A stretch of DNA of 64,000 nt, taken from positions 2,624,001 to 2,688,000 of the forward strand of contig OY970320.1 in NCBI GenBank assembly GCA_963716745.1, read 5' to 3'. Shown piece by piece: positions 8,660 to 49,957 of this stretch; the stretch's first letter is position 1; each line of letters starts with the position of its first letter. Under the pieces are notes generated by a model. It worked only from the letters and a program-made list of their open reading frames with translations, was not told where the DNA came from and did no database searches. The position numbers and the translations under genes were made by a program. The stretch comes from an uncultured Gemmatimonadaceae bacterium (GTDB lineage: Bacteria > Gemmatimonadota > Gemmatimonadetes > Gemmatimonadales > Gemmatimonadaceae).

Positions 8660-8760
8660 TCGCGCAGATCTCGTTCACGCACGACTCACGTCTCACGACT
8701 AACGCCTGCACGCACGACTCACGCCTGCAGTTTCTTTTCTTCAGATTCGGAGATCCCCTG

Positions 8761-9384: not shown

Positions 9385-9452
9385 TCAAAGCAGTGGAGGC
9401 GTGAGTCGTGAGTCGTGCGTGAAGGCGTGACGCGAGAGTCGTTCGTGAGAGC

Positions 9453-10043
9453 GTGCGTCAGGGTCGGGCGTGCTTGAGGGCGTGCGCGGTGGTGTTGATC
9501 GCCGCGTGCGCCGGCGGACCGCCGCCCGGTTCGCCGGGCGCGCCGCCTCCGGTCGTGCCGATCTTGTTCCCGCTCGTGATCGATTCCGTGCGATTCACGA
9601 GCGGATGGGGCGATGACCGTGAGGGCGGCCGCAGTCATCACGGCCAGGACATGTTCTGTCCCAAGTGGACGCCGATCATGGCGGTGGTGAACGGCACGGT
9701 GGACTGGATCCTCAGTGCACCGCCGAAGCAGCCGAAGGGCTACCACATCCTGCTGCGCGGCGATGACGGGAACGTCTATCTGTACGAGCATCTCAACAAC
9801 GACGATCCCGGCACGAGCGACAACAAGGGCGCGCCGCGCTATGCCTACGCGCGCAACCTGAAGAACGGCGACCGGGTGGAGGCCGGCGACATCATCGGGT
9901 ACGTCGGCGATTCCGGGAATGCCGAGAAGTGGGGCGCGCATCTCCACTTCGAGATCCACATTGGGAAGTGGGGGAATCCGGTGGACCCCGCGCCCTCATT
10001 GCACGCCGCCCTGGCGCGCCGCCGCGCGAATTCCTCGAATTAG
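9453..10043 (+). CDS. M23 family metallopeptidase (probable lipoprotein)
   Basis: HHGQD and HLHFE zinc motifs. Confidence 0.88.
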   Translation: MRQGRACLRACAVVLIAACAGGPPPGSPGAPPPVVPILFPLVIDSVRFTSGWGDDREGGRSHHGQDMFCPKWTPIMAVVNGTVDWILSAPPKQPKGYHILLRGDDGNVYLYEHLNNDDPGTSDNKGAPRYAYARNLKNGDRVEAGDIIGYVGDSGNAEKWGAHLHFEIHIGKWGNPVDPAPSLHAALARRRANSSN

Positions 10044-22085: not shown

Positions 22086-22090
22086 GCGGA

Positions 22091-23164
22091 CTACGACGCG
22101 GAAGGCGGGCTGCTCGGGCCCGACGATCCACCGCCGCCCTCGCGGCGGCCGCCGCGACGCCCGCGGCGGCGGCGGCGGGGGGCTTCGGATGACGGCGAAC
22201 TGCTGGCTGTCGGCTGTCGGCTGTCGGTGACTGCCGAGCGAGGCTCATCCTCGAGGATCGATTCGCCGTCGACGACGATCGCGTGCGTGCCGGTGTCTTC
22301 GCGCTCCTCTTCGACGACGGCAGGCTGCGAGACGCCGGCGATCTCCGCTTTGTATTCCACGAGCGTGATGATCCGCGTTTCGCCTTCGGCGTTCCGCAGC
22401 GTCACCCGATCGTTGAAAATATCATTCAGCACGATCTTCTCTTCGCCGAGCGCGGTCGTGACGACCTTCCCTTCTTTCGGGAATCGCTTGCGCGCGGCGG
22501 CGTAGAATTCGTGCTCGTAGCGCAGGCAGCACATGAGACGCCCGCACGCGCCGCTGATCTGGCTTGGATTGAGCGACAGCTTCTGATCCTTCGCCGCCTG
22601 CAGGTTCACGGGACGCAGATCGGGCAGCCAGCTCGCCGAGCAATAATCGCGGCCGCAGCGGCCAATGCCGCCGAGCCGCTTCGCCTCGTCGCGCACACCG
22701 ATCTGCTTGAGTTCGATCCGGGTGCGGAACAGTCCTGCGAGATCGCGCACGAGCGCGCGGAAGTCCACGCGCTTCTCAGCCGTGAAATACAGCGTGATCT
22801 TGCGCTTGTCCCACTGCCACTCGGCGTCGCTGATCTTCATCTGCAGCTTGTGCTCGCGCACGCGCTCGGCAGCCTTGCGACGCGCCTCCTCATCGAGCGC
22901 GCGGAGCTCGGCGTGCTTGCGCTCGTCCTCGCCGCTGGCGGTGCGCAGGATCTTGTGGCTCGGCGTAGCGGTGGCGCCGAGTCCGTGCGCGCAGCCGGCG
23001 CAGCGCTTCTCGGCGGCCTCGCCGGTGGCGTGCACCTTGCCGAGATCCTCGCCGCGATCGACCTCCACGATCACGCTGGCGCGTGTCGCGAGAGGAGATT
23101 CGCCCTCCCAGAGGAAGAATTCCTTGCGGTTGCCTTTAAAGGCGACTTCGGTGAGGTGTGGCAC
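22091..23164 (-). CDS. ricT: PSP1-domain protein RicT/YaaT
   Basis: RVDFRALV, QIGVRDEAK, GRCGRDYC, ISGACGRLMCCLRYE. Confidence 0.9.
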   Translation of the reverse strand: MPHLTEVAFKGNRKEFFLWEGESPLATRASVIVEVDRGEDLGKVHATGEAAEKRCAGCAHGLGATATPSHKILRTASGEDERKHAELRALDEEARRKAAERVREHKLQMKISDAEWQWDKRKITLYFTAEKRVDFRALVRDLAGLFRTRIELKQIGVRDEAKRLGGIGRCGRDYCSASWLPDLRPVNLQAAKDQKLSLNPSQISGACGRLMCCLRYEHEFYAAARKRFPKEGKVVTTALGEEKIVLNDIFNDRVTLRNAEGETRIITLVEYKAEIAGVSQPAVVEEEREDTGTHAIVVDGESILEDEPRSAVTDSRQPTASSSPSSEAPRRRRRGRRGGRREGGGGSSGPSSPPSAS

Positions 23165-23189
23165 CCCTACAATCTACTCGCTGAGGGCA

Positions 23190-23350
23190 GAGGGGCGGAA
23201 CTGGAACCGCGAGGGGCGGTGCTGGTACCGCTGAGAGGCGCGTGTGGCGTTGGCGTTGGGTCACTGCGGATCCCGCGGGGCTAGCGGTCGCCCAACGCCA
23301 ACGCTACACGCGCCTCTAGCGGTACCAGCACCGCGCCGTTCAGCGGTGCC
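23190..23350. repeat. Empty inverted-repeat element (family B), same arms as the four-helix-bundle element
   Basis: ggtaccgctgagaggcgcgtgtggcgttggcgttggg - 30 nt - cccaacgccaacgctacacgcgcctctagcggtacc. Confidence 0.88.
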
Positions 23351-23367
23351 ACGCACGCCGCCTGCCG

Positions 23368-24330
23368 TTATTCCGTGACCATCCCCATTCGAAGGAATTT
23401 CTCCCTGCGCCGACGCACCAGTTTATCCGGCTTCACGCGGCGCAGATCATCCAACGCACTCGTCAGCGCGGCCTGCAGCGATTTTGCGGCGGTGGCTTGG
23501 TCGATGTGCGCGCCGCCGAGTGGCTCGGGAACGATCTCGTCGATCACGCCGAACTCGAGGAGATCGGTGGCCGTGATGCGCAGCGCCTTGGCGGCGCGCT
23601 CCTTCATCTCGACGCTCTTGCCGTCCTTCCACAGAATGGCGGCGCAGCCTTCCACGGTGATCACGGAGTAGATCGCGTTCTCGAGCATGAGCACGCGGTC
23701 GGCGACGCCGAGTGCGAGCGCGCCGCCGGAGCCACCCTCGCCGATCACGGTCGCGACGATCGGCACTTCGAGGCGGCTCATCTCCAGCAGATTGCGCGCG
23801 ATCGCTTCGGATTGTCCGCGCTCCTCGGCGCCGAGTCCGGCCCACGCGCCCGGCGTGTCAATGAGCGTGAGCACGGGCACTTGGAATTTCTCGGCGAGCT
23901 TCATGAGGCGCAGCGCTTTCCGGTAGCCCTCGGGGTGGGGCATGCCGAAGTTGCGCTTGAGATTCTCCTTGGTGTCGCGGCCGCGCTGGTGGCCGATGAC
24001 CATGACCGTCTCGCCGTCGAGCCGCGCCCAGCCGCCGACGATCGCGGGATCCTCGCGGAAGGCGCGGTCGCCATGCAGCTCGATGAAATCGGTGAAGGCG
24101 AGCGCGATGTAATCGAGCGTGAACGGCCGCTTGGAATTGCGCGCGACCTGCACGCGCTGCAGCGGCGAGAGGTTGCCGTAGACGATGCGGCGCAGTTCGT
24201 CGAGCTTCGCCGCGAGCGGCGCGATCTCGGCGTCCATGTTCACTTGGCCCTGCGCGCCGGTCTTCTTGAGCTCCTCGATCTGCTTCTCGAGCTCCAGGAT
24301 CGGCCGTTCGAACTCCATCGTCGAGCCCAT
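23368..24330 (-). CDS. accA: Acetyl-CoA carboxylase carboxyltransferase alpha
   Basis: ELHGDR, NFGMPHPEGYRKA, DTPGA, GEGGSGGALA. Confidence 0.97.
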   Translation of the reverse strand: MGSTMEFERPILELEKQIEELKKTGAQGQVNMDAEIAPLAAKLDELRRIVYGNLSPLQRVQVARNSKRPFTLDYIALAFTDFIELHGDRAFREDPAIVGGWARLDGETVMVIGHQRGRDTKENLKRNFGMPHPEGYRKALRLMKLAEKFQVPVLTLIDTPGAWAGLGAEERGQSEAIARNLLEMSRLEVPIVATVIGEGGSGGALALGVADRVLMLENAIYSVITVEGCAAILWKDGKSVEMKERAAKALRITATDLLEFGVIDEIVPEPLGGAHIDQATAAKSLQAALTSALDDLRRVKPDKLVRRRREKFLRMGMVTE

Positions 24331-35184: not shown

Positions 35185-35892
35185 ATGGACCGCCCCGCCC
35201 AGCCGGCCGTCGAGTGCATTGCCCTCGCCCATCGCTTCGGCCCGAAATGGGCGCTGCGTGGGATCACGATGCGCATCGCGGCAGGCGAGATCGTCGCGGT
35301 CACGGGCAACAATGGCAGCGGCAAGAGTACGCTGCTGCGCGTCGTCGCGACGGCCCTGCGTCCCTCCCGCGGCTCGGCGCGCGTGTTCGGCCATGACGTG
35401 CGAACGGACGCGGCTTCAGTGCGCGGAATGTGCGCGCTCGTGGGGCACGCGAGCGGGGTGTACGCCGACCTCACCGTGCGCGAGAACCTGGGATTCGCGA
35501 TGCGCATGAGCGGCGAGTCGATGGACGACGCGCGCATTGCCGCCGCGATCGAGCGCGTGAATCTCGCCCACGAGGCCGATACCCGCGCCCGCGACCTCTC
35601 CGCCGGCCAGCAGCGCCGCGTCTCGCTCGCGCGCGTGATGCTCCGCGATGTGCAGCTGCTGTTGCTCGACGAACCGTACACGAGCTTCGATGAAGAAGGC
35701 ATTGCGCGCGTGAATGAACTGCTCCGCGAACTGCGCGCGCGCGGCGGCTCGGCGCTCGTGATCACGCACGATCTCGACCGCACCCGCGCGGTGATGGACC
35801 GCGCGATCCGCCTCGACGCCGGCATGCTCCACGAGCCGTCGCTCACGCCCACCGGCGCGATGCCGGCCTTCCGCCTGGCGAGCCGTGGCTGA
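35185..35892 (+). CDS. ccmA: Heme ABC exporter ATP-binding protein
   Basis: GNNGSGKST, LSAGQQRR, LLLDEP; first gene of the ccm operon. Confidence 0.9.
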   Translation: MDRPAQPAVECIALAHRFGPKWALRGITMRIAAGEIVAVTGNNGSGKSTLLRVVATALRPSRGSARVFGHDVRTDAASVRGMCALVGHASGVYADLTVRENLGFAMRMSGESMDDARIAAAIERVNLAHEADTRARDLSAGQQRRVSLARVMLRDVQLLLLDEPYTSFDEEGIARVNELLRELRARGGSALVITHDLDRTRAVMDRAIRLDAGMLHEPSLTPTGAMPAFRLASRG

Positions 35893-36581
35893 GCGCGCGT
35901 GGTCGCGCGAATTCGCGCGCATGGGCGCGGTGGCGTGGAAGGATCTCGCCGTCGAGCGCCGCTCCAAGGCGAGCGTGAACGCCGTGCTCTTCTTCGCCGC
36001 GCTCACGCTGCTCCTCTTCGGTTTCGCCCTCGGCGCCGACACCGACGCGCTCAAGTCCGCGAGCGCCGGCATGCTCTGGCTCACGGTGCTGTTCTCGGGC
36101 GTGCTCGTGTTCAACCGGTCGTACGAGACGGAACTCGACGGCGGCGCGCTCGAGGTGCTGCTGCTCTATCCCGGGCGAGCGCTGGTCGATCTTCGCCGGC
36201 AAACTCATCGCGAATCTCGCGTTCGTGCTCACGGTAGAAGTCGTGACGCTTCCAGTAGCGGTGGTGCTCTATCACATGCCGCTCGCCAACGCGCCGTGGG
36301 GCGTGGCCGGCGTCATGCTGCTCGGCACGATCGGTTTCGTCACGCTCGGCACGTTCTACGCGGCGATGGCGAGCCGGCTGCGCTCGCGCGAAGTGCTGCT
36401 GCCGCTGCTGCTCTTCCCGATGCTCGTGCCCGTGCTCATCGCCGCGGTGCAGGCGACGCAGGCCATGCTCCTGGGCGATGCGATGGGCGACAGCACGACC
36501 TGGGTGCGCCTGCTCGTGGTGTTCGATGTCATCTTCCTCGTCGCCGCGGTGCTGGCGTTCGAGCACGTGATCGAAGGGTGA
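35885..36581 (+). CDS. ccmB: Heme exporter protein B; frameshift near 36180
   Basis: WKDLAVE, REVLLPLLLFP. Confidence 0.88.
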
Positions 36582-36585
36582 TGCG

Positions 36586-37282
36586 ATGAGCGAAAGCAAG
36601 CGCAAGCCGGTCTTGATCCTCGTCACGGCGCTGCGTGCTCGCGGCGCTCGCCGCCGCGCAGTGGTGGGCGGTGAGTCACTCCGCGCCGGACCGCGACATG
36701 GGCGATCTGCAGAAGATCATGTACGTGCACGTGCCGAGCGCGTGGAGCTTCTTCGTGGCGTTCTTCATCGTGCTCGTCGCGAGCGGGATGTACCTCGCGA
36801 CGCGCGACGAGCGCTACGACCTGATCGCGGCGAGCGCCGCCGAGGTGGGCGCGGTGCTCACCGGGCTGGCGCTGGTGACGGGCTCGATCTGGGGGCGCTC
36901 GACGTGGGGCACGTGGTGGACATGGGACGCGCGCCTCACCAGCACGGCGGTGCTGTTCCTGATCTATCTTGGGTACCTGTCGCTGCGCGCCGCGATCGAC
37001 GACACCACCGTGCGCGCGCGGTGGAGCGCCGCCGTGGGGATCCTTGGCGCGATCAATGTCCCGATCGTATACATGTCGGTGCGCTGGTGGCGCACGCTGC
37101 ACCAGGTGCAATCGAGTCCGAGCACCGTGGCGGGATCGTACGTGACGTCGCTGCGACTGAACGCGGTGGTGATGCTGATGGTGACGGCATGGTTCATCCT
37201 CGCGCGCTACCATGCGGCGATGATCGAGCGCGCGGCGGGCGCGCTGGCGGAGGAAGCGGCGCTCGGTGGGAGGCGGTCATGA
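36586..37282 (+). CDS. ccmC: Heme exporter protein C; frameshift near 36630
   Basis: YVHVPSAW, WGRSTWGTWWTWDARLT, WWRTLHQ. Confidence 0.93.
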
Positions 37283-37425
37283 GCGGTGAATGGAGCTATG
37301 TGACGGCGGCGTACGCGGCGGCGTGGATCTGCTTCGTCGGCTATGCCGTGCGTCTCGTGCGGATCACCATGCGGGCGCGCCGCGACTACGACGCGGCGCG
37401 CGACGCACTGGTGCGATCGCTATGA
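37279..37425 (+). CDS. ccmD: CcmD-like small membrane protein
   Basis: MSGEWSYVTAAYAAAWICFVGY...; position between ccmC and ccmE. Confidence 0.7.
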   Translation: MSGEWSYVTAAYAAAWICFVGYAVRLVRITMRARRDYDAARDALVRSL

Positions 37426-37869
37426 CCAGCACGAAGAAGGCGTTGATCATCGGCGGCGGAGTGATGTTCGCGGCCGCATTCGCCTATCTCCTGTTCGGCG
37501 GGATCGGGAACAACCTCGTGTACTTCCTCACGCCGTCGGAGTTGCTCGCGAAAGGACCGGCGGCGTACGACACGCCCGTGCGGCTCGGCGGGCAAGTGGT
37601 GCCGGGCAGCGTGGTGTGGGATGCGCCGAACGTCGACCTGCGATTCACGATGCAGGACGGCAAGGCGCAGGTGATGCGTGCACTCGCGCGGCGCGCCGCC
37701 GCAGATGTTCCGCGATGGGATCGGGGTGGTGGTCGAAGGCAGATATTCGGCGAAGGGCACCTTCGAGGCGACGAATCTCCTCGTGAAGCACTCGAACGAG
37801 TACAAGCCGCCGAAGGCTGGGCAGGATCCGTCGGAGATGTACAAGTCGCTCATGAAGGGAGGCGCGTAA
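37422..37869 (+). CDS. ccmE: Heme chaperone CcmE; frameshift near 37678
   Basis: LVYFLTPSE, RLGGQV, PQMFRDG, KHSNEY (HxxxY). Confidence 0.9.
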
Positions 37870-39903
37870 TGCTGAACGCGATCGGCTCGAGCGCGCTCAT
37901 CGTCGCGCTCGCGATCTCGGTGTTGGGCCTCGTGGCCGCGGCGGCCGGCGGAGTGCGCCGCAACGCGGCGTTCGTCCGCGCCGCCTACGCGGCGGCGTAC
38001 GTGAACTTCGCCCTGCTCGCGATCGCGGCCGGCACGATGATCACCGCGCTCGTGACGCACGATTTCAGCGTGAGCTACGTGGCGCAGGTGGGCAGCCGCT
38101 CGACGCCGATGCTCTACACCGTCATCTCGCTCTGGGGCGCGCTCGAGGGATCCATCCTCCTCTGGGGCCTGGTGCTCACCGGCTACACCGCCGCGGTGGT
38201 GTACCTCAATCGCGGCCGCGCGGGGCAGCTGCTGCCCTTCGCGACCGCGACGCTCTTCGGGATCGCGACCTTCTTCCTGATCCTGCTCGTGGGCCCGGCG
38301 AATCCGTTCCACACGGTGTTCCCCGTGCCCCCCGACGGTCCGGGGCCGAACGTGCTGCTTCAGAACCATCCGCTGATGGCCATCCATCCGCCGTTCCTCT
38401 ATCTCGGCTACGTCGGCATGAGCGTGCCGTTCGCCTTCGCGATCGGCGCGCTGCTCTCCGGCGAGACGGACGGCGACTGGATCCGCACGACGCGGCGCTG
38501 GACGATGGTCGCGTGGGGCTTCCTCGGCTTCGCGATCGTCGCCGGGATGTGGTGGAGCTACGACGTGCTCGGCTGGGGCGGCTACTGGGCCTGGGATCCG
38601 GTGGAGAACGCGAGCTTCATGCCGTGGCTCACCGCCACCGCGTTCATCCATTCGGAGATCGTCGAGGAGCGGCGCGGCATGCTGCGCGTGTGGAACATGA
38701 CGCTCATCGTCGCGACGTTCATCCTCACGATCCTCGGCACCTTCCTCACGCGCAGCGGCATCCTGAGTTCGGTGCACGCCTTCGCGGAAGGCGTCGTGGG
38801 CTACTACTTCCTCGGATTCATCGCGCTCGTGCTCATTGGCTCGATGATCCTGCTCGCGGGGCGGAGCAATTCGCTCAAGAGCACGGGCCAGCTCGACGCG
38901 ATCGCGAGCCGCGAGACGGTGTTCCTCTTCAATAATCTGCTGCTCTGCGGCTTCATGTTCACGGTGCTGCTCGGCACGCTCTTTCCGCTCGTCGCCGAGG
39001 CGATCCGCGGCGTGAAGGTGAGCGTGGGCGCGCCATTCTTCAACACGATGACGCTGCCGATCGTCGCCGCGCTTGCTGCTGCTCATGGGCGTGGGGCCGG
39101 CGCTGCCGTGGCGGAGCGCGACGAAGGAGCAGGTGCAGCGCCAGCTGATCCCGCCAACGGTGATCATGGTGATCGTGATCGTAGGCAGTCTCGTGGCCGG
39201 GCTCCGCCAGCCGTACGCGATCGCGGCGTTCGCGTTCGGCGCGTTCGCGATCACGGCGAACCTGCGCGAGTACTGGCGCGGCGCGCGGGCGCGCATGCGC
39301 GCGCAGGGGGAGAACTTCTTCGTCGCGCTCGCGCGACTCGTGCAGGGGAACCGACGGCGCTACGGCGGCTACCTCGCGCATCTCGGCGTGCTCACCCTCG
39401 CGCTCGGCGTGACCGCGAGCAGCGCGTTCCGCATGGAGCGTGAGGCGACGATCAAGCCCGGCGGCACGATCACGCTCGCGGGGTACACCGTGCGCCTCAA
39501 TGAGATGTGGGGACGCGAGGAGCCGCAGCGCGTGGTGGTGGGCGCGAGTCTCTTCGTGGAGCGCGGCGGCAAACGCATCGGCACGCTCGATCCGCGTCTC
39601 AATTATTTCCGGACGTCCGAGCAGCCGGTGGCGACGCCCGCGGTGCGGAGCCGCGCGGACGCCGATCTCTACGTGAACCTCATGGCGTTCGAGCGCGACG
39701 GATCGTCCGCGACCTTCCGCGTGCTCGTGGAGCCGCTGGTGGCATGGATCTGGGCGGGCGGGATGATCGTCGCGCTGGGCGCGCTGGTGTGCGTCTGGCC
39801 CGGCGCCGCGGCTCCCGCGTGGGTGCCGGCCGGCATGCGTCGCGCGCGCGCCGAGGCCGTTGAGGAGGAGGAGCCTGCCGTGGCGACGGAAGGCGCCGCG
39901 TGA
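37869..39903 (+). CDS. ccmF: Cytochrome c heme lyase CcmF; frameshift near 39070
   Basis: HPPFLYLGY, WGGYWAWDPVENAS, TRSGILSSVHAF, LAHLG. Confidence 0.95.
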
Positions 39904-40487
39904 ACTGGAAGCGCGCGCTCGTCGCTTTGCTGTGCGCGATCCCGATCATCGCGCTCCTCGCCTTCGGAATGACGCGCGACCCGCGCGAGATCCCGAGTCC
40001 GCTCCCGGGCAACGAGGCGCCGAAGTTCGCGCTGGCCGTCTTCTCCTTCCCGGCGAACGCGCCGGCGGCGCAGGCGAAGGCGGCCGAGCTGCTCAAAGAC
40101 ACCGTGCGTCTCGATACGCTCCGCGGGAAGGTCGTGGTGCTCAATTTCTGGGCGAGCTGGTGCCTGGCGTGCCGCGATGAGCACACCGCGCTCTCCGAGG
40201 CCGCGACCGCGCTCAAAGGCACCGATGCGCGTTTCTTCGGCGTGCTCTACCAGGACGTGCCGCAGAACGGCCGCGACTGGATCAAGCAGATGGGCGGGCA
40301 ATCATATCCTGGATTGTTCGATCCCAAGTCACGCACGGCGATCGATTACGGACTGTACGGCGTGCCGGAGACGTTCTTCATCGGGCGCGACGGCCGGGTC
40401 GCGTACAAGCACGTGGGCGCGGTGCCGATGGACGTGATCATGGGCACGGTGCAGAAGCTGCTCGCCGAGCAGCCGGGGGCGCGGTGA
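39900..40487 (+). CDS. ccmG: Thiol:disulfide oxidoreductase CcmG/TlpA
   Basis: NFWASWCLAC, YGVPETFFI. Confidence 0.9.
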   Translation: MNWKRALVALLCAIPIIALLAFGMTRDPREIPSPLPGNEAPKFALAVFSFPANAPAAQAKAAELLKDTVRLDTLRGKVVVLNFWASWCLACRDEHTALSEAATALKGTDARFFGVLYQDVPQNGRDWIKQMGGQSYPGLFDPKSRTAIDYGLYGVPETFFIGRDGRVAYKHVGAVPMDVIMGTVQKLLAEQPGAR

Positions 40488-40919
40488 TCGTGCGGTGCGC
40501 GGCTCGGCGGACGCTGTGCTTCGCTCTGGCGGCGCTTGTGTCATCTCGTTGCATTCTCATAGTGCGGCCTGTCAGGGCGATTCCCGACTGGATGACTCGG
40601 TGACGGGCGGTCGCATTCGCAATTGCGATGCCCCGTGTGCCAGGGCGAATCGATCCAGGATTCGCCATCGGGACTCGCGAAGGAAATGCGAGATGTGGTG
40701 CGCGAGCAGCTGGCCGCGGGCCGGTCGAGCGAAGAGGTGAAAGCGTATTTCGTGAGCAAGTACGGCGAGTGGATCCTGCTGGAGCCGAAGGCGCACGGCG
40801 CGAACCTCACGGTGTATCTGTTGCCGTTCGTGATGTTGCTGGGCGGTGCATCGCTGATCGTGATCGCGGTCCGGCGATGGACGCGACCGAGCGCGGTGTC
40901 GCAGTCGGAGTCGCCGTAG
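40484..40919 (+). CDS. ccmH: Cytochrome c biogenesis protein CcmH (5' part frameshifted, start approximate)
   Basis: LRCPVCQGESIQDS, YFVSKYGEWILLEP. Confidence 0.88.
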
Positions 40920-40967
40920 ATCGACGGTCGCGACGCTCGTGGTCCTCAGATCCAGCGGAGGAGCGCC

Positions 40968-42445
40968 ATGAGATCATTCCCTCGTTCGAGTCTGCACTTG
41001 CTCCGCGTGGCGGCGTTCGCGGCGCTGGGGCTCATCGGCTGCACGGAGACCGTATACAAGGACTTCCCCGGTTTCGCGCCGCCGCCGTCGGGCGCCGGCG
41101 AATACCTCGGCTACACGAGCGGCTCTGGACCCGCTGCCCGGTGTGCGGCAACTGCCACGCGAGCCACCAGGCGCTCTGGACTCACCGCCAAGCACTCGAA
41201 GGCGTGGGCGAATCTCCAGGCGAGCGGGCACGCGGCGCCGGAGTGCGGCGTATGCCACTCCGTGAGCACGCTCGGCAATGACACGGGCGCGGCGCGGTTC
41301 GGCTACCAAGGTTCGCCGAGCGAGCGCTATCAGGACGTGCAGTGTGAGGCGTGCCATGGCCCGGGACAGAATCACGTAGAGAATGCGGAGGTCGATCGCG
41401 AACCAGCCCATCCCATCGATCTACGTGGCGGCGGGACTGAATTCGAGTTGCAGCGGATGCCACACCGGCGAGCACCAGCCGTTCGTGGAGGAGTGGTCGC
41501 AGTCGGCGCACGGGATCGTGCCGCACTTCGCGAATGGCGCCGGCAACACGTCGTGCCAGCCATGCCATACGGGGCAGGTGGCGCTCACGGCCACGATGGG
41601 CGTCACGAACACCGTGTACAAGGAGATCAACAACCCGCTCACGACGCAGGGGCCGAACGGCGCGCTCACGATCGTGTGCGCGGTGTGTCACGATCCGCAC
41701 GGCAGCCCGAACCTTGGCCAGACGCGTTTCCCGGTGGACACGGTGGATGTGGCCACGAATCTCTGCGCGCGTTGTCACAACCGGCGGTCGGTGCCCGATC
41801 AGAGCGGCAACAAGGGTCCGCACGCGCCGGAAGGTCCGCTCCTCATCGGCAACAACGATGTGGGCTGGCGGCCGCCGAACATGACGCAGGACAACATCCA
41901 CGGGTCGCACGGCGATACGCTGGTGAACTCGAAGCTCTGTGCCACGTGCCACATCTTCAAGAGCCAGAGCACCGATTCGTCGGGCATCACGTTCTTCTCG
42001 ACGGGCCATCTGTTCCTCGCGATCCCGTGCGTCGATGCGAACGGGAAGCCGCTGCCGACCGATTGCGCGGAGGCGAACCGCACGTTCAACGCGTGCGCGA
42101 CCTGCCACGGCGTCGGGCGCGGTCGCGAAGAGCCTGATGGACAACGAGGTGCTCATCATCAACGGGCTGCTCAACACGATGTACGGCATCCTGACGAACC
42201 AGGCGAAGATCCCGTGCTCGCAGTACACATCGACGTCGGGTGCGCCGTGGACCACCGCGCGCGGCGCCCGATTCAATTATCTGCTCGCGGCGGAATCGGG
42301 GAGCGCCGTCGCCGGCCAAGCGTGCGGGAGCGATCTCGCGCTGCCGCCCGCGGTGAGCAAGCTCGGCTCGGCTGTGCACAACGTGCCGCTCATGGAGCAG
42401 CTGCTGATCAACAGCATCGACCAGCTGAATCAGGACTACCCGTAG
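40968..42445 (+). CDS. Multiheme c-type cytochrome lipoprotein, 9 CxxCH; several frameshifts
   Basis: Lipobox LIGC; CGNCH, CGVCH, CEACH, CSGCH, CQPCH, CAVCH, CARCH, CATCH, CATCH across frames; helical C-terminus VHNVPLMEQLLINSIDQL. Confidence 0.85.
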
Positions 42446-42562
42446 AGCGAACCTGCTTGACGGGAAGGGCCCGCGACTGCACTCATAGAGGCAGGTCGCA
42501 TCCGCACCGGGGGGCGTTCAGCTCCCCGGCCGCGCATTGGAGCCCACGCTCGGGAGACGCGA

Positions 42563-44393
42563 TTGATCCAGCAGATCGCTCAGTCGCTCCCGGATTCAGT
42601 CCGCGAAGTCACGGTGGTGAAGACGCCGATTCCCGGCGGCGTCGGCGTGTTCGTGCGCTGGCTGATGAACCTGCCGAGCTGGATCCAGATCACGGCGTGC
42701 TGCGATCGCGGCGGTGATCGGCATCGTGGTGCTCCGGTATCTCTGGAAGCGGCGCAAGGCGATCTGGGCATGGTTCACGACGCGCTCGCGCGGCACCAAG
42801 ATCGCGATCGGCGGCCTCGTCACCGCCGGTCGTGGCGGCGGTTCATCGCGTTCGGCGCGGTGTAGTGGCACTACATGATGCACAACAACGAATTCTGCAG
42901 CAGCTGCCACGTCATGACGAGCGCGTACTCGCGCTTTCAGCATAGCGAGCACAGCAAGCTGCAGTGCCACGATTGTCACGTGCAATCGATCTTCGTGAGC
43001 GCGCGGCAGCTCGTGCTCTGGGTGGCGGAGAAGCCGCAGGTGATCCCGCCGCACGCGAAGGTGCCGAACAAAGTGTGCGGCGAGTGCCACCTCCAGAAAC
43101 CGGGACAGGACAGCATCTGGAAGCGGATCAGCGCCACCGCGGGCCACCATCTGCATCTCAATTCGACCAAGCCGGCGCTCAAGGACATGCAGTGCACCAC
43201 GTGCCACGGCGTGGACGTGCATCACTTCGCGCCGGAGAACGCGTCGTGCGGACAGGCGGGGTGCCACGATAACCTGCCGATGAAGCTCGCGAAGATGAGA
43301 GACCAGACCGAGCTCCATTGCACGAAATGCCATCAGTTCACGCTCCCGGTGGCGGAGAACATCAGCATCGATTCCGCGAAGCAGGCATTGAATCCGACGT
43401 TCGGCCAGTGTGTCGGCTGTCACGACATGAAGAAGGCGCTGGGCAACTACGATCTCGCAGCGGACCCGCACAAGGGCGTGTGCGGCTCGTGCCACAATCC
43501 GCATACGCAGGAAACGCCGCAGGCCGCGTGGACGCTCGTGCGCGAACTCGGGCTGCCACGAGAATGCGGTGACGCTCACGCCGTTCCATAAGGGGATCGC
43601 GGCTGCGGCGCTGCAAAAGTGCTCGACGTGCCACCAGGCGCACACGTGGGCGGTGAGCGGCGACAAGTGCATCGTCTGTCACTCGCGCATCTACGAGGAC
43701 CGGCCGGCGGCCGCGACCGCGAATGCCGGCGGTACGCCAGCGCGGCTCGCCTCGTCAGGCGGCGCGCCGGCGTACTCGGGCTCCGAGAAATTCTCGCACA
43801 ACCGGCATCGCGGTGTCACGTGCACGTCGTGCCATGGCACGGGCACTGCGCACGGGGCGCTGTTGGTAAAGACGGAGGCGGATTGCCAGCGCTGCCACCA
43901 TTCGACGGCGGCGGGCGGCGCGATGTCGGGCGCGCCGGCGCGCACGTGCACGAGCTGTCACGCGTCGGCCAGCTTCGCACGGCGATCGCGGAGACGCTCA
44001 CGGTGAAACTCTCCGTGTGGAAGGCGCCGCGCGCGAGAGTGCTCGCGTTCCCGCACGACCAGCACAGCTCGGTGGCCTGCGTCTCGTGCCACTCGACGCC
44101 CGTGACGATGGCGGTGCCGGCCGAACGGGAACTGCGCGAGCTGCCACGAGAAGCATCACACGCCCGACAACCGCTGCATGTCGTGCCACACCACGCCCAA
44201 GGCCGCGCACACGCGTGAGGCGCACCTCGGGTGCCAGAGCGCGCAGTGCCATGCGCCGCAGTCGGTGTCGGCGTTGAAGCCGCAGCGCAACGTGTGCCTC
44301 ACCTGTCACTCCGACAAGGTGAATCACAAGCCGGGCAAGGAGTGCGCGGCGTGCCATCAGGTGGAGTGGCTCACGGCACAGAAGGGCACCTGA
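42563..44393 (+). CDS. Inner-membrane-anchored multiheme cytochrome, NapC/NirT-like N-terminus, 17 CxxCH + 3 Cx4CH; frameshifts and one in-frame TAG (42863)
   Basis: N-terminal hydrophobic helices; FCSSCHVM..AY.RF..S.H...CHDCH; continuous heme motifs through ORFs 42875, 43569, 43619 and 44178. Confidence 0.8.
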
Positions 44394-44395
44394 TC

Positions 44396-45856
44396 GTGCG
44401 CGCACGTTCGGCGTTCGCGGCGATGGCATCACTGGCCGTCATCGTGCTGTCCGGCGCCGCGCAGGAGATCCGCTTCGGCGGGGCGACCGTGGGGCAGGTG
44501 ATCCAGCTGCCCACGCTCGTGATCGACAGCGTGCCGATCGGCGCGACCACCGGCAGCGGGAACTACCGGCAGACGTCGAACGGATACGTGGCGTGGTGTC
44601 CGTCGACCACCGGCTACTGCTTCTATCATCGCTCCGGACCGACGATCACCACGTCGCCGCTCACGCAGGACCTCGAGGTCAACGCCTTCGGATTCGGGCA
44701 GGGGTTGCGCTTCTACGCCGACGTGCGGTTGCGCGTCACCGGCGGGAATCAGGCGTGGCCGCTCTCGGGACAGACGTTCTCCGCGCTCGCCGCCTATCTC
44801 GAGTACGATCGCAGCGATTGGCGCGCGCGGCTCGGGCGGCAGTTCACGTCCAACGGGCTGGGCTACTACAACTACGACGGCCTCGAGGTGCTCTGGCGCG
44901 CGACCCCGTGGATCGATGCGCAGCTCTACGGCGGCGGCGCGCTCATGCAAGGCGTGAACGCGCCGTACACGAACTCCGTGATCACCGATCCGCAGTCGCC
45001 GCCGCTGCCGAATGACAACGCGTGGCTCATCGGCGCGCGCGTGCGCGGCCACTGGCAGAACGGATCGTCGATCTCGGCGCTCTTCCAGGTGATCGATCGC
45101 GACGACTTCGGCGGCCTGTACTCCGAGCGGCTCGCGGTGAACGGTGTCTTCCATGCGGGGATCACGACGATCACCGCCGACGTGCAGGCCGATCTCGCCA
45201 CCAACCAGTTCGATCTCGCGCAGGCGCGGGCGCAGTATCCACTCGCGCGCGGGACCGGCGTGTTCCTCGAGGTGCGCCACTTCGTGCCGGTGTTCGAACT
45301 GTATTCCATCTGGAGCGTATTCTCGCCCGTCGGCTACAACGAGCTCACCGGCGGCGCCTTCTGGGCGTCGCACGACGGTGTGCTCAGCGCACAATTCGGC
45401 GGCGGATATCGCAGCTACGAGCCGACGAACGCGGGCACGGGCGATCTCACGACGAACGGTTGGCGCATCGGCGCCAATGCCACGTGGCAGGCGATCCCGA
45501 AGCTCATTGTGAGAGGCGGCTATCATTACGATCTCGGGCCGGGCGCCGCCGAGAGTGATGGCAATCTCTCCGCACGCTGGGAGCCGAACGAGGACACGTA
45601 CGCGGGCGTCTTCGCGACGGCGTTCCAGACCGCCTACGAGTATCAGCAGGGGTTCGGCACCGTGTTCGGCGGCGGTGTGACCGGGGGGATGAAGCTCGCC
45701 GACTGGGGTCGTGTGGCGGCGGACATCGGCGAGTTCCGGAACACATACGGCGGCAACGCGCCGCAGTCGAACTGGAATCAGTTCCGCGCGCTGCTGCGAT
45801 TCGACTTCCTCGTCGGGAAGGAGCCGGGCTACGCGGGCGGCGGGGTGGTGCGATGA
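44396..45856 (+). CDS. Putative outer membrane beta-barrel (porin) of the cytochrome cluster
   Basis: Signal peptide; many amphipathic strands (AAYLEYD, WRARLGRQ, WRIGANATW, FRALLRFDF); located between two multiheme genes. Confidence 0.72.
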   Translation: MRARSAFAAMASLAVIVLSGAAQEIRFGGATVGQVIQLPTLVIDSVPIGATTGSGNYRQTSNGYVAWCPSTTGYCFYHRSGPTITTSPLTQDLEVNAFGFGQGLRFYADVRLRVTGGNQAWPLSGQTFSALAAYLEYDRSDWRARLGRQFTSNGLGYYNYDGLEVLWRATPWIDAQLYGGGALMQGVNAPYTNSVITDPQSPPLPNDNAWLIGARVRGHWQNGSSISALFQVIDRDDFGGLYSERLAVNGVFHAGITTITADVQADLATNQFDLAQARAQYPLARGTGVFLEVRHFVPVFELYSIWSVFSPVGYNELTGGAFWASHDGVLSAQFGGGYRSYEPTNAGTGDLTTNGWRIGANATWQAIPKLIVRGGYHYDLGPGAAESDGNLSARWEPNEDTYAGVFATAFQTAYEYQQGFGTVFGGGVTGGMKLADWGRVAADIGEFRNTYGGNAPQSNWNQFRALLRFDFLVGKEPGYAGGGVVR

Positions 45857-47364
45857 GGATCGGCCTCGCATTCGTGGCCGCGCTGGCGAGCGTGGCGTTC
45901 GCCGCGCGCGCGCAACAGCCGGCCGTGTTCCCGCACGCGGCGCACGCCAAGGTGTTCCCGTCGTGCACGGGGTGCCACGCCGGCATCGTGAGTGGCGATG
46001 CGAAGACCGTGTTCCCGGCGCCGCAGGCATGCGCCGGATGTCACGACGGACAGCAGACCGTCGAGGGGCGCGTGCTCAAGCCGGTGGCGTACACCGGTGG
46101 GAAATACCTCGTGACGAACTTGAAGTTCTCGCACGTGGATCACGCGCGCGAGACGAACACTACCGGGAGCACGCGCGCGTGCGTGAGCTGTCACCAGCTG
46201 CCGGGTACCACCGAGTTCATGGCGGTGAGCGGTCCGGTACCGTCGGAATGCCTTGCGTGTCACGCGCACGAGGCGCCGAGCCATCTCGCCGACGTAGCGC
46301 AGTGCCGCACATGCCACGTGCCGCTCGCGAGCGCGACGTCGCTCAGTGCTGATGCGATCGCAGGATTCCCAAAGCCGGCGTCGCACGACGCGCCGGGATT
46401 CCTCTCGTCGCATGCGCCGCAGGACAGCGCGGCCGTCGCGCGCTGCGCCGTGTGCCACACGCAGGAGAGCTGCGCGCGTTGTCACATGCAGCCGCCCGCG
46501 ACCGCGCAGATCGCGATGCTCGGCAATAGCGCCATGGTGGCGCAAGCGATCGCGGGCAAGCATGCGGTTTATCCGGTGCCGGCGAGTCACGCCGCGAACG
46601 ATTTCGCGGCGACGCACGGCGCCGCGGCGACGGCGAATCCGGCGTCGTGCGCGAATTGTCACGCACAGGCGAGTTGCAAGACGTGCCACCTGCAGCTCGG
46701 CGCGCGCGCCGTGATCGCACAGTTGCCCACGCCGGCGCCGGGACACGCGCAGGGTGTGCAGCTGCGCAGCGCGAGTGATTTCGCGCTGTTCGCGGCCGTC
46801 GCGTTCCGTGCGCCGTCCAAGAATCCGGCGCGCGGCCGGCCCGACATCTGGACCGTGCGCGTGCACGATCCCGGCTTCTCAAGGAATCACCGCGCCGCCG
46901 CGGCGTCGGCCACGCAGAATTGTCTCGGCTGCCACCAGAAATCGTACTGCGCCGATTGTCACGACGGCGTGGGCAAGCTGAAGTACCATTCCGCGGATTT
47001 CGCGATGGGCCACGCCGCGCAGGCGTACGGCCGCGAGCAGGACTGCGCGAGTTGCCACAATACGCAGGCGTTCTGCCTCACGTGCCACCAGAACCTCGGG
47101 CTCGGCTCGACGGGCCGCGCGGACGGGTCGGTGCACAACGCGTCCGCGAACTGGCTGTTGCAGCACGGCGAAGCGGCGCGGCTGTCGCTGCCGAACTGCA
47201 TTACGTGCCACAAGCAGAGCGACTGCATCAAGTGCCACTCCACCACCACGTGGGGGATCAATCCGCACGGGCCGGACTTCAACGCGGATCGCATGGCGAA
47301 GGCCAACACGCAGATCTGCTACTACTGCCACGTGACGAATCCGGTGGCGAACAAGACACACTAG
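45853..47364 (+). CDS. Periplasmic multiheme cytochrome c, 16 CxxCH
   Basis: Intact 503-aa ORF; Sec signal ending ARA; 16 CxxCH counted. Confidence 0.92.
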   Translation: MRIGLAFVAALASVAFAARAQQPAVFPHAAHAKVFPSCTGCHAGIVSGDAKTVFPAPQACAGCHDGQQTVEGRVLKPVAYTGGKYLVTNLKFSHVDHARETNTTGSTRACVSCHQLPGTTEFMAVSGPVPSECLACHAHEAPSHLADVAQCRTCHVPLASATSLSADAIAGFPKPASHDAPGFLSSHAPQDSAAVARCAVCHTQESCARCHMQPPATAQIAMLGNSAMVAQAIAGKHAVYPVPASHAANDFAATHGAAATANPASCANCHAQASCKTCHLQLGARAVIAQLPTPAPGHAQGVQLRSASDFALFAAVAFRAPSKNPARGRPDIWTVRVHDPGFSRNHRAAAASATQNCLGCHQKSYCADCHDGVGKLKYHSADFAMGHAAQAYGREQDCASCHNTQAFCLTCHQNLGLGSTGRADGSVHNASANWLLQHGEAARLSLPNCITCHKQSDCIKCHSTTTWGINPHGPDFNADRMAKANTQICYYCHVTNPVANKTH

Positions 47365-47389
47365 GCGTTGGCGCGCTTGGGACATCGCG

Positions 47390-47858
47390 CCGCCGGTCGC
47401 GGCGCCGTCTCCGGCTAGGCCGCTTTCGCTCAAACCGCTTCGAGCCTCGCGCAGACTGCGCGCGAGTCTCTCGCTTTTCGCTATCGCGGCTGCGCCGGAG
47501 GCGACGCCGCTCCCTGCGATCGATCGAGGGTGCGCATGCGAGCTACGACTGCAATGCTGCGCCCGTTCGCCCTTGAGCGCGTGGAAGAAGTCAGCGGCGC
47601 GCGATTCGCGCGCGATCGGCCCATGCGCGCGGGCCGTGCGGGGGGAAGGTATCGCGCGCTGCGCCCCAGTCGCGCTCGCTTCGCGAAGAAGGCGCACCGG
47701 TCGCCGGTGCCCCAGGCGGACCATGATCGAGGAGAGGGAGCGAGCCAGCGCCGGCGCAGCCGCGGCAGCGAAAAGCGAGAGACTCGCGCGCAGTCTGCGC
47801 GAGGCTCGAAGCGGTTTGAGCGAAAGCGGCCTAGCTGGCGCTGGCCCGCGACCGGCGG
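47390..47858. repeat. Long inverted repeat (69-bp perfect core, ~105-bp arms) around a ~250-bp spacer; MITE-like
   Basis: 47414-47482 is the exact reverse complement of 47767-47835. Confidence 0.9.
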
Positions 47859-47867
47859 CGCAACAGT

Positions 47868-48563
47868 CTATGACGCCGCGTGCTCGGCGAGCGCGAGATC
47901 CTCGCGGCGCACGGAGCGCAGCGCGAGTGAGAACACGGAGCCGAACGCGCGCGCGACTTCGGCGCGCACCTGTGCATCATCGGCGCGAGCTACGCCGAGC
48001 TCGCGGGCGATGGAGGTCATCGTGACGTCGGGGATCCCGCACGGGACGATGAGTTCGAAGTAACTGAGGTCCGTGTTCACATTGAGCGCGAAGCCGTGCC
48101 ATGTGACCCAGTCGCGCGCGTGCACGCCGATGGACGCGATCTTCCGCCCGCGCGTCCACACGCCGGTCTTGCCCGAGTTCCGCTCAGCGGGAATGCCGAG
48201 CGCGCCGAGTGCGACGATGAGCGCCTCTTCCACCTGGCGCAGGTACCAGTGGAGATCCTGCTTGTGCCGCTTGAGGTCGACGATCGGATAGCCGACGAGC
48301 TGCCCCGGCCCGTGGAAGGTGATGTCCCCGCCGCGCTCCACTTCGAACACCTCCACGCCGCGCGCGCGCAGCGCCTCCGGCGTCGCGAGCATGTTCGCTT
48401 CCTTCGCGGTGCGCCCGAGGGTGACGACCGGCGGATGTTCGAGCAGGATGAGCAGGTCTTCGGCGATCTCGCCCGAGATCCGCGCGCGCGCCGCAGCGCG
48501 CTGGAATTCCAGCGCCTCGCCATACGGCACGAGCCCGAGCTCCGCCACGAGCAGGTCACGCAT
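47868..48563 (-). CDS. lipB: Lipoyl(octanoyl) transferase
   Basis: EHPPVVTLG, RGGDITFHGPGQLVGYP, HGFALN, IVPCG. Confidence 0.96.
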   Translation of the reverse strand: MRDLLVAELGLVPYGEALEFQRAAARARISGEIAEDLLILLEHPPVVTLGRTAKEANMLATPEALRARGVEVFEVERGGDITFHGPGQLVGYPIVDLKRHKQDLHWYLRQVEEALIVALGALGIPAERNSGKTGVWTRGRKIASIGVHARDWVTWHGFALNVNTDLSYFELIVPCGIPDVTMTSIARELGVARADDAQVRAEVARAFGSVFSLALRSVRREDLALAEHAAS

Positions 48564-49957
48564 CGGTCATGCGACCCATCGAGTCGAGCGCCGCCTGCGC
48601 CACCGCCTCCGCCATGGTCGGATGCGCATGGATCGCCAACTCGATCTCTTCAACGGTCAGCTCGCTCTCGCGCGCCACCGCCAGCTCGTGAATGAGTTCC
48701 GTCGCATGCGCGCCGATGATGTGCGCGCCCAGGATCTCGCCGTACTTCGCGTCGCGAATGATCTTCACGAAGCCCTCGGTCTCGCCCGCGGTGCGCGCGC
48801 GCCCGCTCGCCATGAAGGGGAACTTGCCCACCTTGTACGCGATCCCCTTGTCCTTCACCTGCTGCTCGGTCATCCCGATGGACGCGACCTCGGGATGGCA
48901 GTACGTCGCGCCCGGGATGTTCCCGTAGTTCACCGGATGCGACTCGTGTCCCGCGATCAGCTCCACGGCCACGACACCCTCGCGCGAGCCCTTGTGCGCG
49001 AGCATCGGCGGGCCGGCCACATCGCCGATGGCGTAGATGCCCTTGGCGGTCGTCTCCATGCGCTCGTTGATCTTGATGAAGCCGCGATCGGTGAGCTGCA
49101 CGCCGGCTTCCTTGAGCCCAATGTTCTCGACGTTCGGCGCGCGCCCCGCGGCCACGAGCACTCTCTCCACGGTGATCTCCTTCTTCTCCGGCGCGTCGAG
49201 CACGAGGGTCACGCTGTCCTTGCCCACTTTCGTGCTCGAGATGCGCGCGCCCGTGATGATCTCGATCTTCCGCTTGCGGAAGCTCTTCGCGAGTTCGGCG
49301 CCCACCTCGGCGTCCTCCACCGGCAGCAGCGTCGGCAGCACTTCGATCAGCGTGACCTGCGTGCCGAAACTCGTGAACACGTCCGCGAACTCGCACGCCC
49401 ACGGCGCCGGCGCCGATCACGGCCATCGTCTTCGGCGCTTTCTCGGCGATCAGCACTTCGTCGCTCGAGAGCACTGTGCTCTTGTTAATCTCGAGCCCGA
49501 TCTGCGGCAGCCCCTTCACGCGCGAACCGGTCGAGATGATCACGGCCTTCGTGGCGTCGTGCTTCTCCGTCTTCCCATCGGCGGTCTTCACGTTCACGGA
49601 CTTGCCGCCCGCCAGCGTGCCGGTGCCCTTGATCCAGGTGATCTTGTTCTTCTTGAAGAGGAACTCGACGCCCTTGGAATTCTGCAGGCTCACCGCGCGC
49701 GAGCGCTTCATGGCCACGCCGTAGTCGGTGGTCACCTCGCCCACGTTGACGCCGAACTCGGCCGCGTGCTTCAGGCGATTCGCGAGCGCCGCGCTCTCGA
49801 GGAGCGCCTTGGCCGGGATGCATCCCCAGAGCACGCAGGTGCCGCCGAGCCCTTCGCGCTCGACCATCGCGACGTTGAGCCCGAGCTGTGCGCCGCGGAT
49901 CGCGCCGACGTAGCCGGCGGGCCCGCCGCCAATGAAGATCACATCATAGGTCGCCAT
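48556..49957 (-). CDS. lpdA: Dihydrolipoyl dehydrogenase; frameshift near 49400
   Basis: [26 protein letters not shown]. Confidence 0.95.

Follow-up and report, generated by a model that had tools for sequence, protein, structure and literature searches.

The closest described electron conduits of the outer membrane are MtrCAB with CymA and MtoAB/PioAB, whose common logic is a cytochrome threaded through a barrel, a lipoprotein cytochrome outside and a quinol dehydrogenase of the NapC/NirT type. To our knowledge, work on porin–cytochrome conduits has been confined almost entirely to Proteobacteria and Geobacter, and the Gemmatimonadota, a major soil phylum, are regarded as aerobic heterotrophs and are not known for extracellular electron conduits. 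In the Pcc system of Geobacter (OmaB/OmbB/OmcB), OmaB and OmcB reportedly carry 8 and 12 hemes. The PCC3 and PCC4 systems, known from genomics only, likewise combine a predicted porin, heme-rich cytochromes and an inner-membrane electron entry; they carry a conserved five-helix inner-membrane protein of ~300 amino acids (aa) with two WX3HX13H motifs, the median heme numbers of the cytochromes are 34 and 21 in PCC3 and 4, 5 and 10 in PCC4, and most are found in Proteobacteria (PMC5566968). It has been reported that OcwA of Thermincola is a nine-heme cell-surface iron-oxide reductase built of a c554-like and an NrfA-like module and that nitrite and hydroxylamine are further substrates of the enzyme in vitro (PMC6703420); OcwA and OmhA are called "very poorly represented" in databases, and the catalytic histidine pairs of OcwA, H281/H282 and H380/H381, are stated to adjoin two open hemes (preprint 10.1101/2022.02.24.481543). 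An "mto-like" system is labelled without detail in a Gemmatimonas-like metagenome-assembled genome (MAG) (PMC6137239), unnamed porin–cytochrome groups are catalogued in cave MAGs (PMC13264449), and no description of the locus treated here was found in the literature covered, which took in these two papers apart from their figures and supplements. This locus is a four-gene cassette, g1 to g4, at positions 40968–47364 of a window of 64,000 nucleotides (nt), the whole stretch that was analysed, from an uncultured Gemmatimonadaceae bacterium (GCA_963716745.1, contig OY970320.1, positions 2,624,001 to 2,688,000). The most plausible interpretation of the cassette is a porin–cytochrome conduit of a new type, assembled from unnamed families on the logic already known from MtrCAB/CymA, and we consider it likely that it carries electrons across the outer membrane, in one direction or the other.

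All four genes lie on the + strand, and their limits were read stop-to-stop in the three + strand frames. The gene g1 (40968..42445) encodes a 9-heme lipoprotein of the OcwA/OmhA type and is read through frames 2>1>2>0>1, with four frame changes; g2 (42563..44393), which also changes frame several times, encodes a 20-heme cytochrome anchored in the inner membrane by a head of the NapC/NirT/NrfH type; g3, starting at 44396 (GTG) or 44423 (ATG) and ending at 45856, is intact, has no heme motif and encodes the predicted outer-membrane beta-barrel; and g4 (45853..47364) is an intact open reading frame (ORF) for a secreted 16-heme cytochrome. Within 41144–47317 there are 45 heme-binding motifs on the + strand, 42 of them CXXCH and 3 CX4CH, which are divided into 9 in g1, 20 in g2 (including all three CX4CH) and 16 in g4 (all CXXCH). 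An earlier note, made from the DNA letters alone, had proposed four co-oriented genes with about 45 hemes here, among them a 9-heme lipoprotein, a roughly 20-heme protein and a 16-heme exported protein; the motif counts agree with each of these figures, the approximate one becoming exactly 20, and g1 and g4 have the expected lipobox and signal-like N-terminus. Outside the cassette, the window contains one heme-motif match on the + strand (a CXXCK) and four on the - strand. In a six-frame translation of the 3.29-Mb genome, which is a single contig, 42 of the 197 CXXCH motifs fall in the cassette, and only two clusters of at least three are found elsewhere, one of 5 and one of 8. The genes are tightly packed: 2 nt separate the stop of g2 from the start of g3, the stop of g3 overlaps the start of g4 (ATGA), and g1 begins 48 nt past the stop of ccmH (40919). 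From that stop to the downstream neighbour, a lipoyl-transferase gene (47868) on the opposite strand, g1–g4 fill the + strand and no further candidate ORF was seen.

The product of g3 has 486 aa and a signal-like N-terminus. It matches nothing in Pfam or NCBIfam at E ≤ 0.01, and its 54-sequence profile matches no PDB chain at E ≤ 1, 6R2Q_B included; in the ESM Atlas, each of the 30 nearest clusters goes by the name "hypothetical protein" and lacks a Pfam family, and the three listed in detail occur most often in Gemmatimonadota. The AlphaFold2 model from the 54-sequence alignment, with a predicted local distance difference test score (pLDDT) of 85.6 and a predicted template modelling score (pTM) of 0.78, is all-beta with ~22–24 strands and has no plug domain. 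Searched against the PDB with Foldseek, this model gave 344 matches at E ≤ 0.001, of which those listed are outer-membrane barrels, including FimD ushers and, at rank 35, MtrB; VIA-align gave Z scores of 16–19 to 22-strand TonB-dependent barrels, 17.6 to FimD and 16.3 to MtrB (354 residues aligned), a likeness to MtrB that is no better than that to unrelated barrels. From these models, g3 is predicted with confidence to be a large plugless outer-membrane barrel outside any named family, and the reading of 44396–45856 as a beta-barrel, on which the earlier proposal depended, is borne out by AlphaFold2, Foldseek and VIA-align alike. Since the predicted barrel is large and plugless, its lumen needs an occupant. 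The most conserved motif of g3, residues 289–303, forms a short helix between two strands and was used as the query for the genome scan described below; the most conserved non-heme residues include P289, L293, I296, W297, F300, P302, V303 and Y332. Two cysteines (residues 59 and 66 of the 477-aa form; 44597–44620), kept in at least 90% of the 54 sequences, flank a small hairpin ahead of the third strand, and this pair may form a disulfide in a barrel loop.

The occupant suggested by complex prediction is g4, which has a signal-like N-terminus and in which all 16 CXXCH motifs and 14 further histidines are invariant across 53 sequences, a pattern that fits bis-His electron-transfer hemes. When g3 (residues 12–477) and g4 (22–503), two of the three proteins for which the earlier note had suggested a joint model, were modelled together from alignment inputs, the interface score ipSAE was 0.80, 0.76 and 0.78, against a best of three of 0.00 for the controls; of the solved complexes, 116 of 157 attain the mark set for the tool, as do 2 of 215 mismatched pairs. 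At least 64% of contacts were shared between runs, and the partner pLDDT was at least 74. In the predicted complex, g4 residues 334–492 contact barrel residues all round the lumen, and the contacts of lowest error join the g3 motif 289–303 to the neighbourhood of the invariant g4 residues A442–R443; the residues engaged in these contacts are among the most conserved non-heme ones of both proteins, on the g3 side those named above, Y332 included, and on the g4 side A441, A442, R443 and Q455. The complex score supports binding of the two proteins, and the model predicts that the C-terminal third of g4 lies inside the g3 barrel and the N-terminal two thirds outside it. The g4 profile also matches HmcA of Desulfovibrio (1H29, 1GWS, 1Z1N) at E 7e-12 to 1e-11, and HmcA has 16 hemes as well; membership of g4 in the HmcA family was rejected, because the match is local (profile positions 41–119 or 37–139) and amounts to one c3/c7-like stretch. 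Partners of the hmcBCDEF type are absent at the cassette, where g4 is paired with a barrel instead.

At the inner-membrane end, the ~610-aa g2 protein begins, in intact relatives, with one or two hydrophobic helices that are followed by F-C-x-x-C-H-x-M. In this first heme site C111, C114 and H115 are invariant among 46 sequences, and M117 of the CXXCHxM is kept in at least 90% of them; the 20 motifs are all invariant, as are 19 additional histidines, with 2 more nearly so. The g2 profile matches NrfH (PDB 2j7a_C) at E 5.1e-11, a likeness that is limited to the first ~60 residues of NrfH. An intact homologue (L011:4304-6151) passes the Pfam family Cytochrom_NNT (PF03264) with 26.3 bits against a cut-off of 24.1, while the frameshifted piece in the window scores 24.0 against the same cut-off; the NrfH equivalog TIGR03153 is matched at E ~1e-11, yet with 42–46 bits it stays far under its cut-off of 134.2. 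Like NrfH, CymA and the NapC/NirT proteins, g2 thus has an N-terminal membrane helix followed by first hemes with CXXCHxM and, through its intact homologue, the PF03264 signature, but the small tetra- or pentaheme size of that group is not found: its members carry 4–5 hemes in ~160–200 aa, whereas g2 carries 20 in ~610 aa and often has a second N-terminal helix. In an hhalign comparison, g2 and g4 align over 389 columns (probability 99.1%, E 6.8e-19), and the homology runs from just past the first heme of g2 to the C-terminus. By this profile comparison, g2 and g4 are paralogues, g2 being an NrfH-type head fused to a g4-like body. Judging by this homology, g4 appears to be the g2 body copied and set free.

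At the outer end, g1 carries the lipobox LIGC in the window, and the lipobox cysteine is found in all 61 aligned homologues, where it is followed by C-(T/V)-(D/S)-(E/D)-K, a motif that may be likened to the surface-export signals of Bacteroidota. With phmmer, an intact g1 relative matched a single PDB entry, OcwA (6I5B), at E 1.3e-4. The heme-free AlphaFold2 model of the intact homologue L011:2710-4185 (pLDDT 83.9) gave only three Foldseek matches at E ≤ 0.001, namely 6i5b_B, 6i5b_A and 6qvm_A, with E 1.5e-7 over 471 columns for OcwA and 1.5e-5 for OmhA. In VIA-align, this model reached Z 17.1 to OcwA 6i5b (root-mean-square deviation 3.5, 333 residues aligned), 16.0 to OmhA 6qvm, 12.7–13.8 to NrfA, 13.6 to octaheme nitrite reductase (ONR), 8–9 to HAO-type and MccA chains, and 5.2 to MtrA. 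Several traits of the OcwA/OmhA group are recovered in the model and the sequence: nine heme sites, a c554-like N-module (Pfam Cytochrome_C554 is matched at the N-terminus of g1), an NrfA-like C-module and long C-terminal helices (384–409, 430–441 and 473–490). OcwA of Thermincola potens has nine hemes in ~480–530 aa and a length similar to that of g1 (~470 aa mature); the identity of g1 to OcwA and OmhA is 18–24%, and while OcwA and OmhA (Carboxydothermus ferrireducens, 6QVM) are wall or S-layer proteins of monoderm thermophiles, g1 is a diderm lipoprotein encoded together with a porin. The family comprises at least 586 clusters at 90% identity, whose names are "cytochrome c3 family", "multiheme c-type cytochrome" or "hypothetical", the named ones being from Gemmatimonadota. 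From the model, g1 is proposed to be the outer terminal oxidoreductase, presumably exposed at the surface.

The same data bear on another explanation, in which g1 and g2 form a periplasmic respiratory or detoxifying pair resembling NrfHA, with g2 as quinol dehydrogenase and g1 as reductase for nitrite, hydroxylamine, NO or sulfur oxyanions, and with g3 and g4 in some other or accessory role. The head of g2 is NrfH-like, the superfamily of g1 is that of NrfA, ONR and c554, as the Z scores above reflect, the 8 conserved non-motif histidines available for 9 hemes in g1 leave room for an open catalytic heme, and the in vitro turnover of nitrite and hydroxylamine reported for OcwA would fit such a pair. 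This explanation, however, leaves unaccounted for the strict pairing of g3 with g4, the predicted threading of g4 and the 16 extra hemes of g2; moreover, g1 has no CXXCK motif, its nearest structures are two surface reductases rather than NrfA, and every one of its aligned homologues is a lipoprotein. We regard an NrfHA-like role as improbable.

Compared with MtrCAB and CymA, the cassette differs in every component. MtrB_PioB (PF11854) matched neither g3 nor anything else in the genome at E ≤ 0.01; MtrA/DmsE (TIGR03508) gave no match to g4 and 19–46 bits to pieces of g1 and g2, against a cut-off of 192.2; MtrC/OmcA (PF22113) gave 16.9–23.2 bits to pieces of g1, against a cut-off of 30; and among the fold-search matches listed, neither MtrC for g1 nor other barrel families for g3 were prominent. 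MtrB has 26 strands in ~650–700 aa, whereas g3 has ~22–24 in 486 aa; the hemes number 10, 10 and 4 in MtrCAB/CymA as opposed to 16 in g4, 9 in g1 and 20 in g2; the outer cytochrome is of the OcwA type instead of the MtrC type; and the quinol dehydrogenase, unlike CymA, is encoded in the operon and is fused to a 16-heme extension. The view that heme counts and sizes are unlike those of MtrCAB, taken in the earlier note, is confirmed by these figures. As to whether the components fall into a described conduit family, no MtrCAB model reached its cut-off, and the five-helix inner-membrane protein of the diheme b type that marks PCC3/PCC4 is absent from the + strand between 40919 and 47868; by the published description, the c-type NrfH head, the heme numbers 9/20/16 and, as far as seen, the occurrence in Gemmatimonadota further set the cassette apart from those two systems. 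From the Pcc system of Geobacter, the cassette appears to differ in its heme counts (the Pfam and NCBIfam libraries searched hold no models for Pcc or Ext).

Relatives of g3 amount to 101 matches, all of them named "hypothetical" only, and g3 is present in 24 of the 41 nearest genomes. Across an even sample of Gemmatimonadota, it was found in 182 of 401 genomes (181 of the 395 of high quality), and 82 of the 148 genera have it. A further scan, which took one genome per species and used the g3 motif as query, recovered 435 stretches that encode a relative, of which the best 80 loci were analysed; 76 of these carry the label Gemmatimonadota, with one Longimicrobiales among them, and the remaining 4 are called no more than "bacterium", which, with the g3 relatives, bears out the earlier guess at the phylum. 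Heme numbers, counted in complete ORFs of the best 80 loci and of ten relatives, are well kept: g1 homologues (455–540 aa) have 9 motifs in 72 of 78, g2 homologues 20 motifs in 56 of 70, and g4 homologues 16 motifs in 68 of 76, with 18 in 6 more. Gene order was scored in 58 loci, after 22 of the 80 had been set aside for incomplete flanks. In all 58, g3 is directly followed by g4, and the full order g1-g2(long)-g3-g4 is found in 38, so that the survey of synteny asked for at the outset finds the order across the phylum; the others are g1-g1-g3-g4 (8/58), a short 9–10-heme c3-like protein in place of g2 (5/58), g2-g3-g4 (4/58), g1-g3-g4 (2/58) and g3-g4 alone (1/58). The tandem g1 variants and the g2 substitutes occur in loci L034, L035, L037, L039, L047, L052 and L063, and L069, L087, L089, L090 and L099; the substitute is a class III cytochrome of 260–275 aa with 9–10 hemes and a signal or lipobox. 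In one locus (L014 of G037), additional 16-, 11- and 4-heme genes stand upstream of the cassette.

Because g3 and g4 are adjacent in all 58 loci, the porin–cytochrome pair is the invariant core, as in MtoAB/PioAB, and this raises the question of an inward mode, in which extracellular Fe(II), Mn(II), humics or reduced minerals would donate electrons to g3 and g4, as they do to MtoAB/PioAB, and g2 would relay these electrons to the quinone pool or an aerobic chain. MtoAB/PioAB work without a surface cytochrome, and g1 is not beside the core in 7 of the 58 loci. Heads of the NapC/CymA type are reversible in principle. Elsewhere in the genome, a 5-heme gene (L106:170-5036, - strand; G000:C1 ~703170-708040) lies beside NrfD-type genes and a molybdopterin/4Fe-4S gene that is split by a frameshift; we take this layout to be an alternative complex III, which would point to an aerobic respiratory chain, and such a chain could accept electrons of this origin. 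The "mto-like" label on the Gemmatimonas-like MAG (PMC6137239) points the same way. Against the inward mode stands the resemblance of g1 to a characterised terminal reductase, OcwA (PMC6703420). NrfH-type proteins usually oxidise menaquinol, which also speaks against it, and no marker of autotrophy or iron oxidation was seen, though none was searched for. On balance, an inward mode appears unlikely.

The frame changes in g1 and g2 call for a decision between assembly noise and decay. Compared with a 93%-identical relative (G004), the 6.5-kb region contains 24 single-base indels, of which six are in g1, eight in g2, none in g3 and a compensating pair at the start of g4. The whole window differs from this relative by 134 insertions and 145 deletions, which are distributed patchily, from 0 to 49 per 2 kb (for example, the bins 8000-10000, 22000-24000 and 40000-42000), and one or both of the assemblies are noisy. 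The ccmF gene (37290-39903) and a lipoamide-dehydrogenase-like gene (48556-49957, - strand; named by eye from its translation) are likewise split, and the completeness score of the single-contig genome is only 89.8%. With the indel columns ignored, the ratio of nonsynonymous to synonymous substitution rates (dN/dS) between the window and the relative is 0.03–0.12 for g1, 0.10 for g2, 0.11 for g3 and 0.05 for g4, and these low values therefore indicate purifying selection on all four genes. Contigs from four soil or rhizosphere metagenome runs (X1–X4), which are short, come from related strains, bridge the region in part and leave several bins uncovered, were aligned to it; among the rows listed, the frame-restoring state is present at 8 of the 14 indel sites of g1 and g2 (41129, 41180, 42696, 42829, 42840, 43536, 43968 and 44121), in X3 and/or X4 contigs and at one site in X1. 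A 518-nt X1 contig over 43957–44474 has two gaps.

If the cassette were a decaying relic in the present genome, g1 and g2 would be true pseudogenes and only g3 and g4 intact. The distribution of the indels, with 14 in g1 and g2 while g3 is free of them and g4 has no more than a compensating pair, would agree with this, as would X1 or X2 contigs that lack the corrected state at 44121, 43536 and 42840. However, dN/dS is as low in g1 and g2 as in g3 and g4, the indels extend over the whole window, with ccmF and the lipoamide-dehydrogenase-like gene split as well, the genome is incomplete by its score, the X3 and X4 contigs restore the frame at the sites given, and the relative G004 keeps an intact 20-heme g2. 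The 14 single-base indels look like assembly errors, and decay is very unlikely; real pseudogenisation, which the earlier note had named as a way for its proposal to fail, is not borne out by the dN/dS values, the intact relatives or the corrected contigs.

The surroundings of the cassette are also informative. Directly upstream and co-oriented lies a complete System I cytochrome c maturation operon (35185..40919, + strand; ccmA, ccmB, a ccmC region, ccmE/ccmF, ccmG and ccmH), with Pfam matches to ABC_tran, CcmB, CcmE, Cytochrom_C_asm, CcmF_C, Redoxin/AhpC-TSA and CcmH, and in 27 of the 58 loci ccm genes that share the strand of g1 end at most 1.5 kb ahead of it. The gap that separates g4 from the lipoyl-transferase gene is occupied by two inverted repeats of ~112 nt (47387–47498 and 47751–47861), separated by 252 nt, with a 95-nt core that is 94% complementary and a terminator-like hairpin in each copy; the unit has 31 blastn matches in the genome, often as inverted pairs 300–400 nt apart, and looks like a dispersed element of the miniature inverted-repeat transposable element (MITE) or repetitive extragenic palindromic (REP) kind. 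Downstream neighbours were counted in 60 loci with at least 2.5 kb past g4. A small TPR-like lipoprotein (~130–170 aa) stands beside g4 in 35 of them, with 24 cases on the same strand and 12 on the opposite one (for example, L096:6740-7213, L054:9509-10093 and, on the - strand, L011:9180-9644); as a fifth member of the operon it was rejected, because it is encoded on either strand and gave no tblastn match in the genome of the window or in G004. Co-oriented with the cassette and downstream of it, the small subunit of a [NiFe]-hydrogenase is encoded in 15 of the 60 loci and the large subunit in 13 (for example, L037:9966-11639, L050:10819-12570 and L045:10346-11908), and 7 loci have a cytochrome b with a fused c-type domain after the cassette; the loci with hydrogenase and cytochrome b are probably from related lineages, and the counts are not independent. 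The second heme cluster, and the only other large multiheme gene of the genome, is an 8-heme gene (L105:3452-5809, - strand) for a protein of 784 aa with 8 CXXCH and HEAT and TPR repeats, directly adjoined by the gene of a DUF2490 protein (L105:5811-6566, - strand), a family of predicted outer-membrane barrels; the two lie at G000:C1 ~2956450-2959570.

The conduit reading is favoured because the density of heme motifs is far above the genomic background; because a predicted plugless barrel, g3, is joined with a cytochrome, g4, predicted to thread it; because the g1 model is closest to OcwA/OmhA and the g2 head matches NrfH and NapC/NirT; and because synteny and heme counts are conserved and dN/dS is 0.03–0.12. 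An outward, acceptor-reducing mode of the conduit is possible, at a little short of an even chance. In this mode, g2 would oxidise (mena)quinol at the inner membrane with its NrfH/CymA-like head, carry the electrons along its 20 hemes into the periplasm and pass them, by direct contact, to its soluble 16-heme paralogue g4, whose C-terminal hemes, with the g3 barrel as their sheath, would cross the outer membrane; the OcwA-like g1 would then take the electrons from g4 at the outer membrane and reduce an external acceptor, for which Fe(III)/Mn(IV) minerals, humics and possibly soluble N-oxides are candidates. No small periplasmic shuttle is obvious among the CXXCH clusters of the genome (six-frame translation of a noisy assembly), which, as an argument from absence, fits a hard-wired path. 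We tentatively suggest, with less than even confidence, that about half of the Gemmatimonadota possess a shuttle-free, hard-wired 45-heme wire, in which a heme chain that spans the periplasm has an NrfH head for quinol oxidation at one end and docks on barrel-sheathed g4 at the other, with a surface reductase of the OcwA type as the end of the wire, and that they respire minerals or humics with it in anoxic soil; in some lineages, the wire may be fed by the adjacent uptake [NiFe]-hydrogenase.

Several points weigh against a conduit of this kind. The genes g1 and g2 are frameshifted in the present assembly, the contigs that cover the indel sites stem from related strains and not surely from the same strain, and some of them lack the corrected state at the three sites named above. 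The four-gene order is departed from in 20 of the 58 loci, 8 with a double g1 and no g2, 5 with the short substitute and 7 without g1 or g2 or both. The superfamily to which g1 belongs, that of NrfA and c554, consists mostly of periplasmic enzymes, and NrfA itself reaches Z 13.8. The structure models contain no heme, and the complex score may partly reflect the memory that the model has of the solved MtrAB complex, although no sequence likeness between g3 and that complex is detectable with the g3 profile against the PDB at E ≤ 1. Finally, the direction of electron flow is not readable from sequence. Of the distinct extracellular electron transfer (EET) system that the earlier note had proposed, the new conduit architecture is supported by computation, through the folds, the fit of g3 with g4, the paralogy of g2 and g4, the conservation and the purifying selection; a function in EET, its direction and its substrate are what we infer from that architecture.

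Through g1, the OcwA/OmhA surface reductases, until now a sparsely represented oddity of Gram-positive bacteria, are linked to a large family in diderms. In g2, a quinol dehydrogenase and a long heme wire are naturally combined in one protein, which bears on how electrons cross the periplasm. If the cassette is functional, it would add a compact four-gene module to those available for bioelectrochemical engineering, and it would change the reading of the ecology of an abundant, hard-to-culture soil phylum.

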